Shown: piece after piece, positions 1,508-17,281 of the stretch | Numbering within the stretch: the stretch's first letter is position 1 | How the letters are laid out: each line of letters opens with the position of its first letter | The notes under the pieces: model-generated | What the model saw: only the letters and a program-made list of their open reading frames with translations | The model's database searches: none | Told to the model about the DNA's origin: nothing | Position numbers and translations under genes: made by a program | IMG/VR virus record: IMGVR_UViG_2529292726_000014 | Span: 1-22,431 of that record | From: a virus | Taxonomy: Duplodnaviria; Heunggongvirae; Uroviricota; Caudoviricetes | Direction: 5' to 3' (one strand) | Length of the DNA stretch: 22,431 nucleotides

Positions 1508-2593
1508 TTACGTTTGACTAACCAAATAGTACTGGGTTAGATACCTAAGGTTGTCATTCTTTGCTTGTAGCATAGCATTTTTAACGTCAGTATCGGTCGG
1601 ATACCCATCTGCTTGGATAGGCACCATCTTCTTTACCGTAAGAACTTCGTCTACAAGACTTTTCTTCTTTTTATCGCCCTGAGCAACAACATTTGCTTTC
1701 TCAAAAGTTAAACGACCATCACCACCAGGGAACTTTTCTAGCATCTCCTTAAGGCTTTTTTTAACGTCATCCTCAAGCCATCCCTTTGCTTTTCTTTTTA
1801 ATGGAGAATGTCCGCGTAACGAAATAGTCAGGTGGCTTGAACTGGTGCCTCTGATCATCTCAATCATCTGATTCGCGAACATTCCATCGAGTTGATACTG
1901 TGCGGCATTGAAGTTTCTTGGGATGGCCACAGAAATCTCGCAGCTTCTTAGATTGGATCCAGTTTCGAGTAGTTCTTTGATGCTTTCTTCTTTCCAAATG
2001 GCTTCAAAAGAAACAGGGACTCCGCGATCACTGGAGTTGAAAAGAAGGAAGGCTAAGTCACTATGGCGTGGACCTAAATGATTTAAAGACAATACTAGAA
2101 TGTCTGTCTGAGGATAATAAATAAAGTATGTACGTTCTGAAAGAGTCTTTGCCCCGGCTAGAGGGATTTTCTCTTCCACCCACTCTTTATCTGTAATATA
2201 TGCCAGTGTTGCGCTTTTTCTTCTTCGAGACATGAATCCGAAGTAGGAGCCATCCTCGGGTGAGATGTCTAGAAAATGAATTTTAAGTTCTCTTTCACCA
2301 AAGTCTGCATAGTGGGTCATCTTGAAGTCTTTAGAACACCGATCATACAGATTTTTAAAGGCCTCTGCGGTTAACCCCTTGTTACTAGTGCGAATATTCT
2401 CAGAGCTTGTGTAAAAGCCCACCCTTACAGATTTCAAACTTTGATCTTTTGGTGCCACAGTCATTTGAGCTCCATTGTACTCTGCGAAAGTTTTTGCACA
2501 CCTTGAAATCAAAATCTCCATGTCAGTCACGAGAAAATAACTATGGATGAAACCCATCAAAGGCATTGAATACAGGTGGCTTTTGAGAATCAT
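1508..2593 (-). CDS. Hypothetical 361-aa soluble protein, first gene of a two-gene operon; no family recognised by eye
   Basis: Long uninterrupted minus-strand ORF in an AT-rich segment, ending 12 bp before the membrane-protein gene. No canonical nuclease, ATPase, cyclase or HEPN motif recognised by inspection. Start could be an internal Met (M10, M13 or M25) rather than 2593. Confidence 0.6.
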   Translation of the reverse strand: MILKSHLYSMPLMGFIHSYFLVTDMEILISRCAKTFAEYNGAQMTVAPKDQSLKSVRVGFYTSSENIRTSNKGLTAEAFKNLYDRCSKDFKMTHYADFGERELKIHFLDISPEDGSYFGFMSRRRKSATLAYITDKEWVEEKIPLAGAKTLSERTYFIYYPQTDILVLSLNHLGPRHSDLAFLLFNSSDRGVPVSFEAIWKEESIKELLETGSNLRSCEISVAIPRNFNAAQYQLDGMFANQMIEMIRGTSSSHLTISLRGHSPLKRKAKGWLEDDVKKSLKEMLEKFPGGDGRLTFEKANVVAQGDKKKKSLVDEVLTVKKMVPIQADGYPTDTDVKNAMLQAKNDNLRYLTQYYLVSQT

Positions 2594-2944
2594 CCTAACC
2601 TGGTGACGGTGGTTCGCATATCCTGATGGATGATCAGTGATTAATCAATGCGCCAAGCAGATGTGTCTATGTGTTTGTTAATCATTGCATGACAGTAGAT
2701 CGACATGGGAGATCACGTTATATAGTTGAATTGTTAGGATATCCATGCACCGATCAACTGACTAGGCTGATGTGCTTTTTAGCAGGTGCCATATAGTAGT
2801 TAGGCGGTTCTGTGAAATGATTACTGTTCCAGCATAACTGCGGCATAAAGCGGTGCTATATAAGCTATTTGCTGGCGGATTTAGTCTTCACCGTTAATAT
2901 ATGTAGTGACTATTTGACAGAGTGTTAGTTCACGGACACTTTTT

Positions 2945-3053
2945 GTTGGTTCAAAATGAGTTGATGTTGGTTCAATATTTTAGAAAAAACACAATAAAAA
3001 CAACGCTCTTTACAAATTGAACCAACTGAACCAACTGAACCAACTGAACCAAC
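2945..3053. repeat. Iteron-like array: two inverted copies GTTGGTTCAA (2945-2954, 2966-2975) and about 3.9 tandem copies of GAACCAACT (3019-3053)
   Basis: Read directly from the sequence. Lies in the ~500-bp divergent intergenic region between the minus-strand operon (start 2593) and the PerC-like gene (start 3090). Confidence 0.75.
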
Positions 3054-3089
3054 ACCTTTTTGCTTATCTATATAATCTGAGAGGCAGAA

Positions 3090-3371
3090 ATGATAAGGGA
3101 CAGGAAAGCTGAAGAGCTGGAGTCAAAAGGGCTATACCGGAGAGCTGCCGCACGATGGATGGAAGTCATGCTGTTATGCACCGAGGACGATGATCGGGAA
3201 TGGATAAAGCGCCGCCGTGAAACGTGTCTGGAGAACGTGAAGCGCCCGCCCGTGAAGGTTGAGGAATTTGGCGACCTGCATAAAGCTGTTACCGAAACGC
3301 AACACCGCATGGGGATAGCGCAACCGAACGGTAACGCCTTCCGGTTAAATGGCGGCAAGAGGCAAAGGTAG
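3090..3371 (+). CDS. PerC-family transcriptional regulator (Pch-like)
   Basis: 93-aa product MIRDRKAEELESKGLYRRAAARWMEVM...KAVTETQHRMGIAQPNGNAF matches the conserved PerC/Pch pattern (KAEELE.KGL.RRAAARW, MGI.QPNG) as I recall it. GAGAGG precedes the ATG. Confidence 0.75.
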   Translation: MIRDRKAEELESKGLYRRAAARWMEVMLLCTEDDDREWIKRRRETCLENVKRPPVKVEEFGDLHKAVTETQHRMGIAQPNGNAFRLNGGKRQR

Positions 3372-3375
3372 ACCA

Positions 3376-3397
3376 CCAGAGGGAAATCATCCTCTGG
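3376..3397 (+). terminator. Possible hairpin terminator downstream of the PerC-like gene
   Basis: CCAGAGG (3376-3382) / CCTCTGG (3391-3397) 7-bp stem with 8-nt loop, followed by a T-rich but interrupted tract. Confidence 0.3.
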
Positions 3398-3452
3398 CTG
3401 GCGGTTTCTGGTATTTCGGGACAAGTACGCGCACGCGTAGCACCCAATCGGT
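3394..3452. repeat. Right copy of the imperfect ~57-bp direct repeat (core GACAAGTACGCGC at 3419-3431)
   Basis: TCTGGCTGGCGGTTTCTGGTATTTCGGGACAAGTACGCGCACGCGTAGCACCCAATCGG aligns with 681-737. Confidence 0.6.
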
Positions 3453-3668
3453 GAGGAAATAGCGGCGACCTGAATGGTCAAAATCACAACGCAGCTATCC
3501 CCGTAAGCATCGCTTAACGGAATAGCAGTAACCTGAATCCAGTGGGGAGGGGGTAGTCAAATCTCTACAGGCCTGACTATCCGGGACTGCCCGCCCCATC
3601 GTTTTTTTATACCCGCGAAAAATGAAATTTAATCCGGGCGTGTTTCATCCTTCCAGAGGGTATGACGT

Positions 3669-3854
3669 ATGACACCACGCGAAATAGCCTTATTGACCAT
3701 CGCCAAACTTGAGCACGGAGGCCACCAGCTTACACAGGCAGATCAACGGGAGATAGAACGATCAGTTAATGCCGATATAGCCCGGCGCGACAGGTTCCGC
3801 GAAATGATGCGAGCACCTGCCTACCAGTGGAAGAAGCCAGCGCCGCGCAGGTAG
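3669..3854 (+). CDS. Small prophage protein (61 aa), possibly YdfA/DUF1391-like
   Basis: ORF with GAGGG upstream. Family assignment is from memory only and is weak. Confidence 0.45.
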   Translation: MTPREIALLTIAKLEHGGHQLTQADQREIERSVNADIARRDRFREMMRAPAYQWKKPAPRR

Positions 3855-3974: not shown

Positions 3975-4517
3975 ATGTACCAGCTAAAGATAACCATCCG
4001 AGACAGCAAACCACCTATATGGCGGCGTGTGCTGGTTCCAGAGCAAATCCCCTTTAGTAAACTTCATGCCGTGATCCAGTTAGCTTTTGGCTGGAATGAC
4101 GAACACCTGTATATGTTCGAGAAAGGGCGTAAAGGTGATCCAGGTAGCGAGTATCGCGTATGGGGTGAGGATGAAAGCATGGGTAACGCGGCAATCACGC
4201 CACTATGGGCGGCGCTCCAGAATGAGGGTGACAAGCTGGTTTACACGTATGACTTTGGCGACTGGTGGGATTGCGTCATTGTGCTGGAGAAGCAAACACA
4301 CGATACGAGTAATCAGCCCATTAGCTGCCTGCGTGGGAAAGGCACCACCCCGGCGGAAAACTCAGGCGGCTTGCATGGTTACAATGAATTGCTATTACAG
4401 GCCAGAGAGTCTGATAATCCTGAGCAGGCCGAGATCCACAATTTCCTGATGCTGGATATTGAACGCCGGGTTTACGACCTGAGCCGCATCAACGACAGAT
4501 TGCAGGCTATTAACTGA
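3975..4517 (+). CDS. pRiA4b ORF-3-like family protein (180 aa)
   Basis: N-terminal pattern YQLKITIRDSKPPIWRRVLVP...LHAVIQLAFGWNDEHLYMF and later DFGDWW are characteristic of the plasmid pRiA4b ORF-3-like family as I recall it. Confidence 0.6.
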   Translation: MYQLKITIRDSKPPIWRRVLVPEQIPFSKLHAVIQLAFGWNDEHLYMFEKGRKGDPGSEYRVWGEDESMGNAAITPLWAALQNEGDKLVYTYDFGDWWDCVIVLEKQTHDTSNQPISCLRGKGTTPAENSGGLHGYNELLLQARESDNPEQAEIHNFLMLDIERRVYDLSRINDRLQAIN

Positions 4518-4869
4518 CCCGCATGTATTCACCTGATATTGCGTTATCAGCGCCGCCAGTATCGCGCATAACAGCACAATGACCGGGTAAACCGTAACGC
4601 ACGACCGTTGCGTTAGTCTCACCGCCGCGCCTTATCTGGCGCGATTCATACACTGTCACCCGCTCAAGCAGTCCACCAGCTACCATGCTTTCCAGTGTGC
4701 GCCGGGTTGATTCGAGCTGGTGACGCTTATCGAACGACACCATGCCATGAAGCAGGTAGGCCACACCCGACACATCGAACGGCGGCGCACCAATCTCACC
4801 AGTCACCCATTCGAGGTTATCCGGTTCAAAGTAGCTAAGTATCTCTTTTTTGCGGCTGGTCATTCTCAT
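4510..4869 (-). CDS. Hypothetical protein (119 aa), possible winged-helix DNA-binding protein
   Basis: ORF convergent with and overlapping by 8 bp the preceding gene. C-terminal segment TRRTLESMVAGGLLERVTVYESRQIRRGG resembles a winged HTH. Start may be M3. Confidence 0.4.
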   Translation of the reverse strand: MRMTSRKKEILSYFEPDNLEWVTGEIGAPPFDVSGVAYLLHGMVSFDKRHQLESTRRTLESMVAGGLLERVTVYESRQIRRGGETNATVVRYGLPGHCAVMRDTGGADNAISGEYMRVS

Positions 4870-5018
4870 GGCTGGCTGATTCCTTATTGTGGGATAGCAC
4901 TATCATACAATAAGTGGGTTAAAGGGAGAGCGTTACCGCCTGATATGCTGTATGAATAACAACCAAATTTCAGGGGCGGAAAAAGATATGGGGGTACTTT
5001 TGGGGGTGTCTATAAAAA

Positions 5019-5718
5019 ATGAACAATAAAAAAGGCAACAAAAACAAAGCTTATCGCCTATGTGTATTGTTCCTATTATCACCGTATCGCCCGAAAGATG
5101 ATGGCTATGTGGCACAGGGGCGCGAGCTAAAACAGCCCGTCATGGCCCCGCTGATTTCTTACTTTCGTGATGCGCGTAAATCACTGGGAATAACGTCAAA
5201 ACAGATAGCGGAAGCCACCGGAAAGAAAAACATGGCTTCGCACTGGTTTGGTACCAGTCAGTGGCAGTTACCGAACGAGGGTGATTACAACAAATTGCAG
5301 GCGTTGTTTGCGCGTGTTGCGGCAGAAAAAACATCAGCGCGGGGAACTGGAAAAACCACACCACCAGCTGGTCAGCACATACAGTGAGCTGAACCGGCAG
5401 TATACGGAATTGCTGAGTGAATATAAAAATTTGCGGCGGTATTTCGGTGTGACGGCGCAGGTTCCGTACACCGATGTCTGGACGCATAAACCGGTGCAGT
5501 ACTATCCAGGGAAACATCCGTGCGAAAAACCGGCAGAAATGCTGCAGCAGATAATCAACGCGAGCAGTCGTCCGGGAGACCTGGTTGCAGATTTTTTTAT
5601 GGGTTCAGGTTCAACGGTAAAAGCGGCGATGGCACTGGGGCGTTGTGCGATTGGTGTTGAGCTGGAGACAGGACGTTTTGAACAGACAGCCAGGGAAGTT
5701 CAGGATTTAATCGTTTGA
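5019..5718 (+). pseudogene. DNA N6-adenine methyltransferase, split by a frameshift (possibly also lacking a canonical DPPY motif)
   Basis: C-terminal half (frame of 5248..5718) has HPCEKPAEMLQQIINASSRPGDLVADFFMGSGSTVKAAMALGRCAIGVELE, i.e. the HP.QKP and F.GSG.T AdoMet-binding motifs of beta-class phage methyltransferases. The N-terminal portion is in a different frame (5019..5387). The frames switch near the A6 run at 5324-5329 or the A5 run at 5351-5355. Confidence 0.55.
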
Positions 5719-5767
5719 AACGGATGAGATTGCAGAATTAATTACGCACCATTATTATTCTGCTCCC

Positions 5768-9466: not shown

Positions 9467-13147
<3,681 letters not shown>

Positions 13148-13167
<20 letters not shown>

Positions 13168-14467
13168 TCTCCCGCATATTGCCAGCATGGCTTTTAATGA
13201 GCCGCTGATGCTTGAACCCGCCTATGCGCGGGTTTTCTTTTGTGCGCTTGCAGGCCAGCTTGGGATCAGCCGCCTGACGGATGCAGTATCCGGCGACAGC
13301 CTGACTGCCGGAGAGGCACCCGCGGCGCTGGCGTTATCCGGTGATGATGACGGACCACGACAGGCCCGCAGTTATCAGGTCATGAACGGCATCGCCGTGC
13401 TGCCGGTGTCCGGTACGCTGGTCAGCCGGACGCGGGCGCTGCAGCCGTATTCGGGAATGACCGGTTACAACGGCATTATCGCCCGTCTGCAACAGGCTGC
13501 CAGCGATCCGATGGTGGACGGCATTCTGCTGGATATGGACACACCGGGCGGGATGGTGGCGGGAGCATTTGACTGTGCTGACATCATCGCCCGTGTGCGA
13601 GACATAAAACCGGTATGGGCGCTGGCCAACGACATGAACTGCAGTGCAGGTCAGCTGCTTGCCAGCGCCGCCTCCCGGCGTCTGGTCACGCAGACCGCCC
13701 GGACAGGCTCCATCGGCGTCATGATGGCTCACAGTAATTACGGTGCTGCGCTGGAGAAACAGGGCGTGGAAATCACGCTGATTTACAGCGGCAGCCATAA
13801 GGTGGATGGCAACCCCTACAGCCATCTACCGGATGATGTCCGGGAAACACTGCAGTCCCGGATGGATGCAACCCGCCGAATGTTTGCACAGAAGGTGTCG
13901 ACATATACCGGCCTGTCCGTGCAGGCTGTGCTGGATACCGAGGCTGCAGTGTACAGCGGTCAGGAGGCCATTGATGCCGGACTGGCTGATGAACTTGTGA
14001 ACAGTACCGATGCGATCACCGTCATGCGTGATGCACTGGATGCACGTAAATCCCGTCTCTCAGGAGGGCGAATGACCAAAGAGACTCAATCAACAACTGT
14101 TTCAGCCACTGCTTCGCAGGCTGACGTTACTGGCGTGGTGCAAGCGACGGAGGGCGAGAACGCCAGCGCTGCGCAGCCGGACGTGAACGCGCAGATCACC
14201 GCAGCGGTTGCGGCAGAAAACAGTCGCATTATGGGGATCCTCAACTGTGAGGAGGCTCACGGACGCGAAGAACAGGCATGCGTGCTGGCCGAAACCCCCG
14301 GTATGACCGTGGAAACGGCCCGCCGTATTCTGGCCGCAGCACCACAGAGTGCACAGGCGCGCAGTGACACTGCGCTGGATCGTCTGATGCAGGGGGCACC
14401 GGCACCGCTGGCTGCAGGTAACCCGGCATCTGATGCCGTTAACGATTTGCTGAACACACCAGTGTAA
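13148..14467 (+). CDS. C: Head maturation protease / scaffold gpC
   Basis: Matches lambda gpC from (V)TAELRNLPHIASMAFNEPL. Start taken as the in-frame GTG at 13148 overlapping the end of B; the ATG at 13013 is inside B and rejected. Confidence 0.85.
14072..14467 (+). CDS. nu3: Scaffolding protein Nu3 (nested in-frame within the 3' part of C)
   Basis: Internal ATG at 14072 preceded by CAGGAGGG. Product MTKETQSTTVSATASQ... matches lambda Nu3 as recalled. Confidence 0.75.
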   Translation: MTKETQSTTVSATASQADVTGVVQATEGENASAAQPDVNAQITAAVAAENSRIMGILNCEEAHGREEQACVLAETPGMTVETARRILAAAPQSAQARSDTALDRLMQGAPAPLAAGNPASDAVNDLLNTPV

Positions 14468-14476
14468 GGGATGTTT

Positions 14477-14809
14477 ATGACGAGCAAAGAAACCTTTACC
14501 CATTACCAGCCGCTGGGCAACAGTGACCCGGCTCATACCGCAACCGCGCCCGGCGGATTGAGTGCGAAAGCGCCTGCAATGCCCCCGCTGATGCTGGACA
14601 CCTCCACCCGTAAGCTGGTTGCGTGGGATGGCACCACCGACGGTGCTGCCGTTGGCATTCTTGCAGTTGCTGCTGACCAGACCAGCACCACACTGACGTT
14701 CTACAAGTCCGGCACGTTCCGTTATGAGGATGTGCTCTGGCCGGAGGCTGCCAGCGACGAGACGAAAAAACGGACCGCGTTTGCCGGAACGGCAATCAGC
14801 ATCGTTTAA
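14477..14809 (+). CDS. D: Head decoration protein gpD
   Basis: [12 protein letters not shown]... matches lambda gpD. Start at the second ATG (14477). Confidence 0.9.
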
Positions 14810-14828
14810 CTTTACCCTTCATCACTAA

Positions 14829-14850
14829 AGGCCGCCTGTGCGGCTTTTTT
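14829..14850 (+). terminator. Rho-independent terminator between D and E
   Basis: GCCGC / GCGGC stem with CTGT loop followed by T6. Confidence 0.6.
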
Positions 14851-14863
14851 ACGGGATTTTTTT

Positions 14864-15889
14864 ATGTCGATGTACACAACCGCCCAGCTGCTGGCGGCAA
14901 ATGAGCAGAAATTTAAGTTTGATCCGCTGTTTCTGCGTCTCTTTTTCCGTGAGAGCTATCCCTTCACCACGGAGAAAGTCTATCTCTCACAAATTCCGGG
15001 ACTGGTAAACATGGCGCTGTACGTTTCGCCGATTGTTTCCGGTGAGGTTATCCGTTCCCGTGGCGGCTCCACCTCTGAATTTACGCCGGGATATGTCAAA
15101 CCCAAGCATGAAGTGAATCCGCAGATGACCCTGCGTCGCCTGCCGGATGAAGATCCGCAGAATCTGGCGGACCCGGCTTACCGCCGCCGTCGCATCATCA
15201 TGCAGAACATGCGTGACGAAGAGCTGGCCATTGCTCAGGTCGAAGAGATGCAGGCAGTTTCTGCCGTGCTCAAGGGCAAATACACCATGACCGGTGAAGC
15301 CTTCGATCCGGTTGAGGTGGATATGGGCCGCAGTGCGGCGAACAACATCACGCAGTCCGGCGGCACGGAGTGGAGCAAGCGTGACAAGTCCACGTATGAC
15401 CCGACCGACGATATCGAAGCCTACGCGCTGAACGCCAGCGGCGTGGTGAATATCATCGTGTTTGACCCGAAAGGCTGGGCGCTGTTCCGTTCCTTCAAAG
15501 CCGTCAGGGAGAAGCTGGATACCCGTCGCGGCTCTCATTCCGAACTGGAGACAGCGGTAAAAGACCTGGGCAAAGCGGTGTCTTATAAGGGAATGTATGG
15601 CGATGTGGCCATCGTCGTGTATTCCGGACAGTACGTGGAAAACGGCGTCAAAAAGAACTTCCTGCCGGACAACACGATGGTGCTGGGTAACACTCATGCA
15701 CGCGGTCTGCGCACCTATGGCTGTATTCAGGATGCGGATGCATTGAGTGAGGGTATTAATGCGTCTCCCCGTTATCCGAAAAACTGGAAGACATCCGGCG
15801 ATCCGGCGCGAGAGTTCACCATGATTCAGTCAGCACCGCTGATGCTGCTGGCTGATCCTGATGAGTTCGTGTCCGTTCAACTGGCGTAA
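14864..15889 (+). CDS. E: Major capsid protein gpE
   Basis: 341-aa product near-identical to lambda gpE as recalled. Confidence 0.95.
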   Translation: MSMYTTAQLLAANEQKFKFDPLFLRLFFRESYPFTTEKVYLSQIPGLVNMALYVSPIVSGEVIRSRGGSTSEFTPGYVKPKHEVNPQMTLRRLPDEDPQNLADPAYRRRRIIMQNMRDEELAIAQVEEMQAVSAVLKGKYTMTGEAFDPVEVDMGRSAANNITQSGGTEWSKRDKSTYDPTDDIEAYALNASGVVNIIVFDPKGWALFRSFKAVREKLDTRRGSHSELETAVKDLGKAVSYKGMYGDVAIVVYSGQYVENGVKKNFLPDNTMVLGNTHARGLRTYGCIQDADALSEGINASPRYPKNWKTSGDPAREFTMIQSAPLMLLADPDEFVSVQLA

Positions 15890-16702: not shown

Positions 16703-17281
16703 ATGGCCATAAAAGGTCTTGAGCAGGCCGTTGAAAACCTCAGCCGTATCAGCAAAACGGCGGTGCCTGGTGCCGCCGCAATGGCCATTAACCGCGTTGC
16801 GTCATCCGCGATATCGCAGTCTGCGTCACAGGTTGCCCGTGAGACAAAGGTACGCCGGAAACTGGTAAAGGAAAGGGCCAGGCTGAAAAGGGCCACGGTC
16901 AAAAATCCGCAGGCCAGAATCAGGGTTAACCGGGGGGATTTGCCCGTAATAAAGCTGGGTAACGCGCGGATTGTCCTGTCCCGACGCAGGCGTCGTAAAA
17001 AGGGGCAGCGTTCAGCCCTGAAAGGTGGCGGCAGCGTGCTTGTGGTGGGAAACCGTCGTATTCCCGGCGCGTTTATTCAGCAACTGAAAAATGGGCGGTG
17101 GCATGTCATGCAGCGTGTGGCCGGGAAAAACCGTTACCCCATTGATGTGGTGAAAATCCCGATGGCGGTGCCGCTTACCACGGCGTTTAAACAGAATATT
17201 GAACGGATACGGCGTGAACGTCTTCCGAAAGAGCTGGGCTATGCGCTGCAGCATCAACTGAGAATGGTAATAAAGCGATGA
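16703..17281 (+). CDS. Z: Tail completion protein gpZ
   Basis: 192-aa product matching lambda gpZ. Confidence 0.9.
   Translation: MAIKGLEQAVENLSRISKTAVPGAAAMAINRVASSAISQSASQVARETKVRRKLVKERARLKRATVKNPQARIRVNRGDLPVIKLGNARIVLSRRRRRKKGQRSALKGGGSVLVVGNRRIPGAFIQQLKNGRWHVMQRVAGKNRYPIDVVKIPMAVPLTTAFKQNIERIRRERLPKELGYALQHQLRMVIKR

Follow-up and report, generated by a model that had tools for sequence, protein, structure and literature searches.

Paired 9-bp iteron arrays as probable initiator-binding, origin-like sites of a phage-satellite island in Escherichia coli

The repeat array that lies directly upstream of a perC-family gene in the 22.4-kb stretch of DNA analysed here (22,431 bp; the window) is, judging from sequence comparisons, probably an origin-like cluster of binding sites for the replication initiator of a phage-satellite island, and an inverted counterpart of the origin core situated behind that island's primase-helicase gene. 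The array is a real, conserved and functional-looking element. Together with perC it forms a module present in 537 of 5426 complete E. coli genomes, at a median of two places per genome, and the proposal thus assigns a concrete role to a repeat found in approximately one in ten of them. The repeat marks the replicon of a widespread phage-satellite family in which a P4-type primase is joined to a SaPI-type helicase. Iteron origins of satellites are already known; the split, inverted layout of two units is unusual, with a precedent in P4.

All six exact copies of the 9-mer TGAACCAAC in the window are confined to 109 bp, against a chance expectation of approximately 0.17 (2 x 22431 / 4^9). As described in an earlier note on this DNA, two copies of GTTGGTTCAA, at 2945–2954 and 2966–2975, precede a tandem array of the complementary 9-mer, which Tandem Repeats Finder resolved into 4.0 perfect copies of TGAACCAAC at 3018–3053 (plus strand). 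The left-hand iterons proper, GTTGGTTCA, occupy 2945–2953 and 2966–2974 on the minus strand. A third, outer left copy on the minus strand, GTTAGTTCA at 2924–2932, carries one mismatch; since the same site is a perfect GTTGGTTCA in most homologous loci, we count the left set as three copies at 21-bp spacing, facing a right set of four at 9-bp spacing. Related loci have two to four tandem copies, most of them three, and the fourth was found in only one of the 30 best E. coli matches (strain 510016), the other 29 being shorter by 9 bp; it looks like recent slippage. Between the two sets lies a 43-bp spacer (2975–3017; 79% A+T), which forms the regional G+C minimum (22–25%) and is a candidate DNA-unwinding element.

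The earlier note had viewed the array as one long interrupted palindrome centred near 2995. This description applies to single arms of 9–11 nt, the inner ones lying at 2966–2976 and 3016–3026 around a centre at approximately 2996; it does not extend to the array as a whole, since the spacing differs between the left copies (21 bp) and the right ones (9 bp). The inner iteron starts are separated by 52 bp, or about five helical turns, and the left copies by 21 bp, or two turns, a geometry that fits a picture of two helicase rings placed around the AT-rich spacer. Single-strand folding gave trivial arm pairing alone (z = -2.85), and a hairpin or cruciform role is therefore not preferred. An Rfam search of 2400–3700 yielded no RNA family, a full-text literature search for the 9-mer returned only unrelated primer or oligonucleotide matches, and no DnaA box was detected in or beside the array, the nearest DnaA-box-like matches being at 2408 and 2492.

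The window covers the right part of a PICI-like satellite island located inside a lambdoid prophage. From base 484 it is 100% identical to E. coli strain 510016, save for an IS21 copy in the latter. The first 483 bases gave no match to strain 510016 at this place, and the IS21 copy (ISEc10), which interrupts the terminase gene in 510016, is absent from the window (at approximately 10,300), indicating that the window comes from a close relative or an IS-free version. In strain 510016 the genes of the island are, in order, those for an integrase, an AlpA-like HTH protein, AntA/B and an Icd-like protein, four small ORFs, the gene for a 918-aa primase-helicase and genes for P22-like ejection proteins; a minus-strand segment of variable content comes next, then the array with perC, and after them a 61-codon ORF and a pRiA4b-ORF3-like gene. 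The product of the last gene (3975–4517 of the window) matches PF07929 with an E-value of 1e-42 and is a conserved companion of PerC at the right-hand end of these islands. The island splits the DNA-methyltransferase gene of the prophage, between the Q antiterminator and the tRNA/lysis/terminase genes, which makes it a helper-embedded satellite, or PICI, in the sense of PMC10111431. This configuration was seen at approximately 4900–5720 of the window and beyond, and at 16811–17221 of locus L106 with 14489–15125 of locus L001; the island is co-oriented with the late operon of the prophage.

The primase-helicase gene lies outside the window, and in the matching E. coli genome a second array of the same 9-mer starts 26 bp past its stop codon, 7.4 kb upstream of the window array. 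In it, an AT-rich spacer of 43 bp separates three tandem copies of GTTGGTTCA from copies of TGAACCAAC at +0, +11 and +32, so that it shows the window array in mirror image. Both arrays have a spacer of this length and can be aligned beyond the iterons, through the motif ATTTGTAAAGAG..TTGTTTT. Array pairs 5.8–8.9 kb apart were also found in other E. coli islands, in Pantoea and in Lonsdalea; the post-primase array is present in Erwinia islands as well, and in Enterobacter both arrays are adjacent. Across these genera the iterons are invariant while the spacers diverge.

We surveyed 78 viral-contig loci with a full-length primase homologue (52–100% identity). An array starting 27–60 bp past the primase stop codon was observed in 75 of them; 32 loci had this proximal array only, 27 had adjacent arrays, and in 16 the arrays were split by 4.6–9.6 kb. 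The second array is thus missing in approximately 40% of related islands, indicating that it is not essential to the replicon. In all 16 split loci, and in the further split islands among the genome loci, the iteron is TGAACCAAC. In L001 a short conserved motif, TTCACATGYG (palindromic CCTCACATGTGAGG in Pantoea), separates the primase stop codon from the first iteron (4842–4866). L013, L011 and L037 have it at the same position, and a terminator or a further binding site are conceivable roles.

The 918-aa protein contains Zn_Ribbon_Prim, Toprim_3 and DUF927 domains. Residues 7–361 share 33% identity with the P4 alpha primase domain (E 1e-41), and residues 401–813 match a 'pathogenicity island protein' of the SaPI Rep type (8tch; E 1e-11) and, more weakly, the SCCmec helicase Cch (5dgk). 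On the basis of these matches the putative initiator is a fusion of a P4-alpha-like Zn-ribbon/TOPRIM primase with a DUF927 self-loading helicase of the SaPI Rep/Cch type. A profile of the C-terminal 150 residues found no match among PDB sequences or in P4 alpha. AlphaFold prediction of the C-terminal fragment from 30 sequences reached a pLDDT of 45, too low for a fold to be assigned, and a terminal helix-helix-strand-strand order was the only hint that it gave.

A link between array and initiator comes from islands in which the iteron has changed. Eight loci carried other 9-mers, namely TGAGACAAC, TGAACCACC, TGAACCGAC, TGAACCCGT, TAACCCGT (in three loci) and TGAACCACG. In each of them all of the approximately 12 copies had changed together, with positions and spacer landmarks kept, which is indicative of one cognate sequence-specific binder per island. 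We then compared primase pairs at least 95% identical over residues 200–800. Among those with the same iteron (n = 113 pairs), the region from residue 820 to the end was on average 97.5% identical (minimum 86.6), and among those with different iterons (n = 13 pairs) 65.9% (maximum 72.8); the 90–95% identity bin gave the same picture. The changes were concentrated in the C-terminal segment ...GMLTPPxSGRGYQRKSPRIxGRQ.... Between L036 and L037 the DNA identity falls to 34–66% over a stretch that begins approximately 320 bp ahead of the stop codon and extends through the arrays, and is at least 94% over approximately 1 kb past them.

Across these islands the type of iteron goes with the final ~100 residues of the primase-helicase rather than with PerC, which argues for the array as a site of the replication initiator. 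As the C-terminal coding DNA adjoins the proximal array, cassette exchange could by itself produce the covariation. A second viral-contig scan, seeded with a TGAGACAAC-type C-terminus, identified no further variant-iteron island and none with the split layout. The family thus provides a natural series of no fewer than seven iteron specificities, matched by short changes in the initiator C-terminus, on which origin recognition by self-loading helicases could be studied directly.

We compared the array with known satellite origins. Those of SaPIs and PICIs consist of 6–12 short iterons directly downstream of rep, divided equally between the two sides of an AT-rich centre (no fewer than two per side) and in opposite orientations, and are bound by the C-terminal domain of Rep (PMC9371898, PMC7581432, PMC6092414). 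The window array, with three minus- and four plus-strand copies around its AT-rich spacer, has the anatomy of such an origin core but not its position: it is not immediately 3′ of a rep/pri-rep gene, and its inverted copy lies 7.4 kb away. It is this twin that directly follows the primase-helicase gene, as an origin core follows rep/pri-rep, and a Rep-type self-loading helicase is encoded by the same element. The Gram-negative PICIs EcCICFT073 and EcCIRM13514 have the same gene order as the island (PMC6092414), with int, alpA-like HTH, AntA, Icd-like, small ORFs, primase, origin and ssb/perC in common. For EcCICFT073 the origin, in which TCTACC iterons are followed by hyp-ssb-perC, was validated experimentally by plasmid maintenance (PMC6092414); our islands share its origin style and the downstream ssb-perC genes. 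They differ from SaPIs (SaPIbov1, SaPI1) and EcCICFT073 in the iteron, the 9-mer TGAACCAAC vs. 5–6-mers, and from SaPIs and PICIs in the initiator, a three-part fusion with a P4-alpha-like primase.

By analogy, the window array and its twin parallel the two-site arrangement of P4. In the P4 record crr adjoins the 3′ end of alpha and ori is found at a distance of 4.7 kb, with type-1 repeats in both orientations at both sites. The island likewise contains two clusters of one short iteron, kilobases apart and each with copies in both orientations; one adjoins the 3′ end of the primase-helicase gene, the other precedes a different operon. The N-terminal primase domain of its initiator is homologous to alpha. 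The helicase and origin-binding regions, however, show no detectable relation to alpha, and the iteron is TGTTCACC in P4 vs. TGAACCAAC here. Both sites are needed in P4, whereas the absence of the second cluster from approximately 40% of related islands argues against a general requirement for both. Iteron plasmids (P1 incC/incA, R6K, RK2) have 17–22-bp direct repeats, Rep_3-type winged-helix initiators and usually DnaA boxes, and clusters outside their minimal origin may act in copy or promoter control. The island resembles them in having several clusters of predicted initiator sites on one replicon, but differs in its 9-bp sites in opposed sets, its helicase initiator and the lack of a DnaA box within or beside the array; the neighbours that we scanned included no Rep_3 protein.

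In the mechanism that we propose, the seven 9-bp iterons would be sites for the C-terminal domain of the island's own initiator, and two helicase rings would assemble on them head to head around the 43-bp AT-rich stretch and melt the DNA. The two units bracket the exchangeable late-plus-accessory zone and would make up a two-site origin like that of P4 with its crr and ori; the distal unit would act as a true origin, an enhancer or a control site.

Alternatively, the window array could bind the initiator as a control locus that does not fire, acting by titration or handcuffing to restrain replication, like P1 incA or other additional iteron clusters on plasmids, or mainly as an initiator-dependent operator or activator site for transcription into perC. 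The optional nature of the second array among related islands is in line with this, as is one second-array form of the adjacent layout, in which a G+C-rich 34-bp spacer takes the place of the AT-rich one. The same can be said of the position of the tandem iterons, which end 17 bp before a conserved -10-like box that has no -35. Yet the array keeps the full anatomy of an origin core, including the 43-bp AT-rich spacer, conserved in length and partly in sequence, which would be superfluous for pure titration, and we consider a control locus unlikely.

The -10-like box belongs to a conserved tail, ACACCTTTTTGCTTATCTATATAAT (3054–3076, plus strand), made up of a T-tract followed by TATAAT at 3071–3076. 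A T-tract and a -10-like box of the TATA(A/C) type were found past the last tandem iteron in all iteron types, and the box is kept ahead of different downstream genes. In the window it has no matching -35, and the last iteron occupies the position expected for one. The earlier note had seen a -35-like TTGAAC in the repeat unit; among the copies, however, only the first of the tandem set and the two perfect ones on the left have the extra T that this hexamer requires, and a sigma-70 consensus scan of 2550–3150 detected no promoter with -35 and -10 hexamers at 16–18-bp spacing. A -35 carried by the unit is therefore not supported. Directly downstream is the perC-family gene (3090–3371, plus strand, 93 aa), a neighbour and possible transcriptional target. 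As the last iteron abuts a -10-like box that lacks a -35, occupancy by the initiator may regulate transcription into perC, and in the proposed mechanism binding at this iteron would probably have such an effect. PerC homologues are activators of the LEE virulence island in pathogenic E. coli (PMC6092414).

This modest role is what remains of the idea, put forward in the earlier note, that the array is an operator or multimeric binding site for perC, a divergent, defence-like operon on the minus strand, or both. In such a scheme a dedicated regulator, either PerC or another island or host factor, would bind the array and control perC, the minus-strand operon or both. The array does lie within a 625-bp gap between divergent genes, right upstream of perC, and its 21-bp, two-turn site spacing would suit cooperative regulators. 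The same iterons, however, follow the primase gene, far from perC, and PerC proteins 92–94% identical to that of the window stand behind the entirely different iterons TGAGACAAC or TATCCCTAC. In Pantoea, Erwinia and Lonsdalea perC is behind the proximal array and not the distal one, and in many islands ssb or other genes are located downstream of the array. PerC was considered as the array binder and rejected, as it shows no covariation with the iterons. On the other side, homology between islands stops at the left edge of the array (approximately 2920), and the upstream neighbours vary, including an Abi protein, ImmA/IrrE, a small HTH protein and the two genes of the window. Pfam and PADLOC gave no match for the minus-strand genes (1058–1495 and 1508–2593) or other small neighbours, leaving the label 'defence-like' without backing and offering no candidate regulator among the minus-strand proteins. 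Together with the negative sigma-70 scan, these observations make a dedicated operator very improbable; nothing that we found links the array to the minus-strand operon, and the reading of the repeat as an iteron-like, multimeric protein-binding array is the part of the earlier proposal that the comparisons support. The two-gene minus-strand operon sits in the variable hotspot of the island, and other islands have Abi_2, HipA-like or ImmA/IrrE genes at this position; the RefSeq start of the larger gene (1508–2593) is the ATG at 2464, giving a 318-aa product.

A packaging site (pac/cos), an integrase arm or recombinase site, or a functionless slippage product is scarcely credible: as a phage satellite the island has to undergo packaging, a gene for an Sf6-like small terminase is close to the distal array in some relatives and the tandem copy number varies from two to four, but the iterons stay invariant across genera as the spacers diverge, the array duplicates the post-primase origin, its distance of at least 1.8 kb from the island end in the window is too large for integrase arm sites, and the helper cos sites on which similarly organised E. 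coli PICIs rely differ in sequence (PMC6092414).

Returning to the initiator-site reading, the interval between split arrays (4978–12330 in L001, and its counterpart in 22 further loci) comprises the late zone and accessory genes. It is highly variable, with 136 protein clusters across the 23 loci. Helper-type DNA-delivery genes in this zone encode P22 gp7/gp20/gp16-like ejection proteins, SLT, tape measure, Dit and hub proteins; other products are Sf6-like TerS, SSB and ProQ/FinO, and the defence-like Abi_2, HipA-like plus DUF3037 and ImmA/IrrE. A two-site layout around a zone of gene exchange suggests links between satellite replication, cargo turnover and perC expression. In its strongest form, the split origin would deliberately bracket the late-plus-defence zone, and initiator-mediated pairing of the two units, or their recombination with each other and with the origins of other islands, would drive the turnover of cargo and couple replication to perC expression; we hold this to be doubtful. 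Were the split-origin reading true, replication would be coupled to the expression of a virulence-regulator homologue.

Two further loci carry arrays in unusual settings. In the 106-kb record of Klebsiella phage P12620-1 (PQ569648; L107, 4824–5102) a DUF927 gene precedes the two arrays, which are adjacent and built of TGAACCAAC iterons; there is a capsid gene nearby, and this record may thus include satellite sequence. Downstream of a TGAACCAAC-type primase and its arrays, E. coli 19AR0656 (L105, reverse complement, approximately 11620–13750) has a foreign origin cassette of the TGAGACAAC type in three tandem copies of 713 bp. Every copy includes the last ~25 codons of the primase that belongs to it, together with a 5′ piece of ssb. 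These cassettes may reflect the capture of an origin, its amplification or a decoy function; in the split-origin reading that we hold to be doubtful, origin cassettes of foreign specificity, such as this triple TGAGACAAC set, might serve as decoys in competition between satellites.
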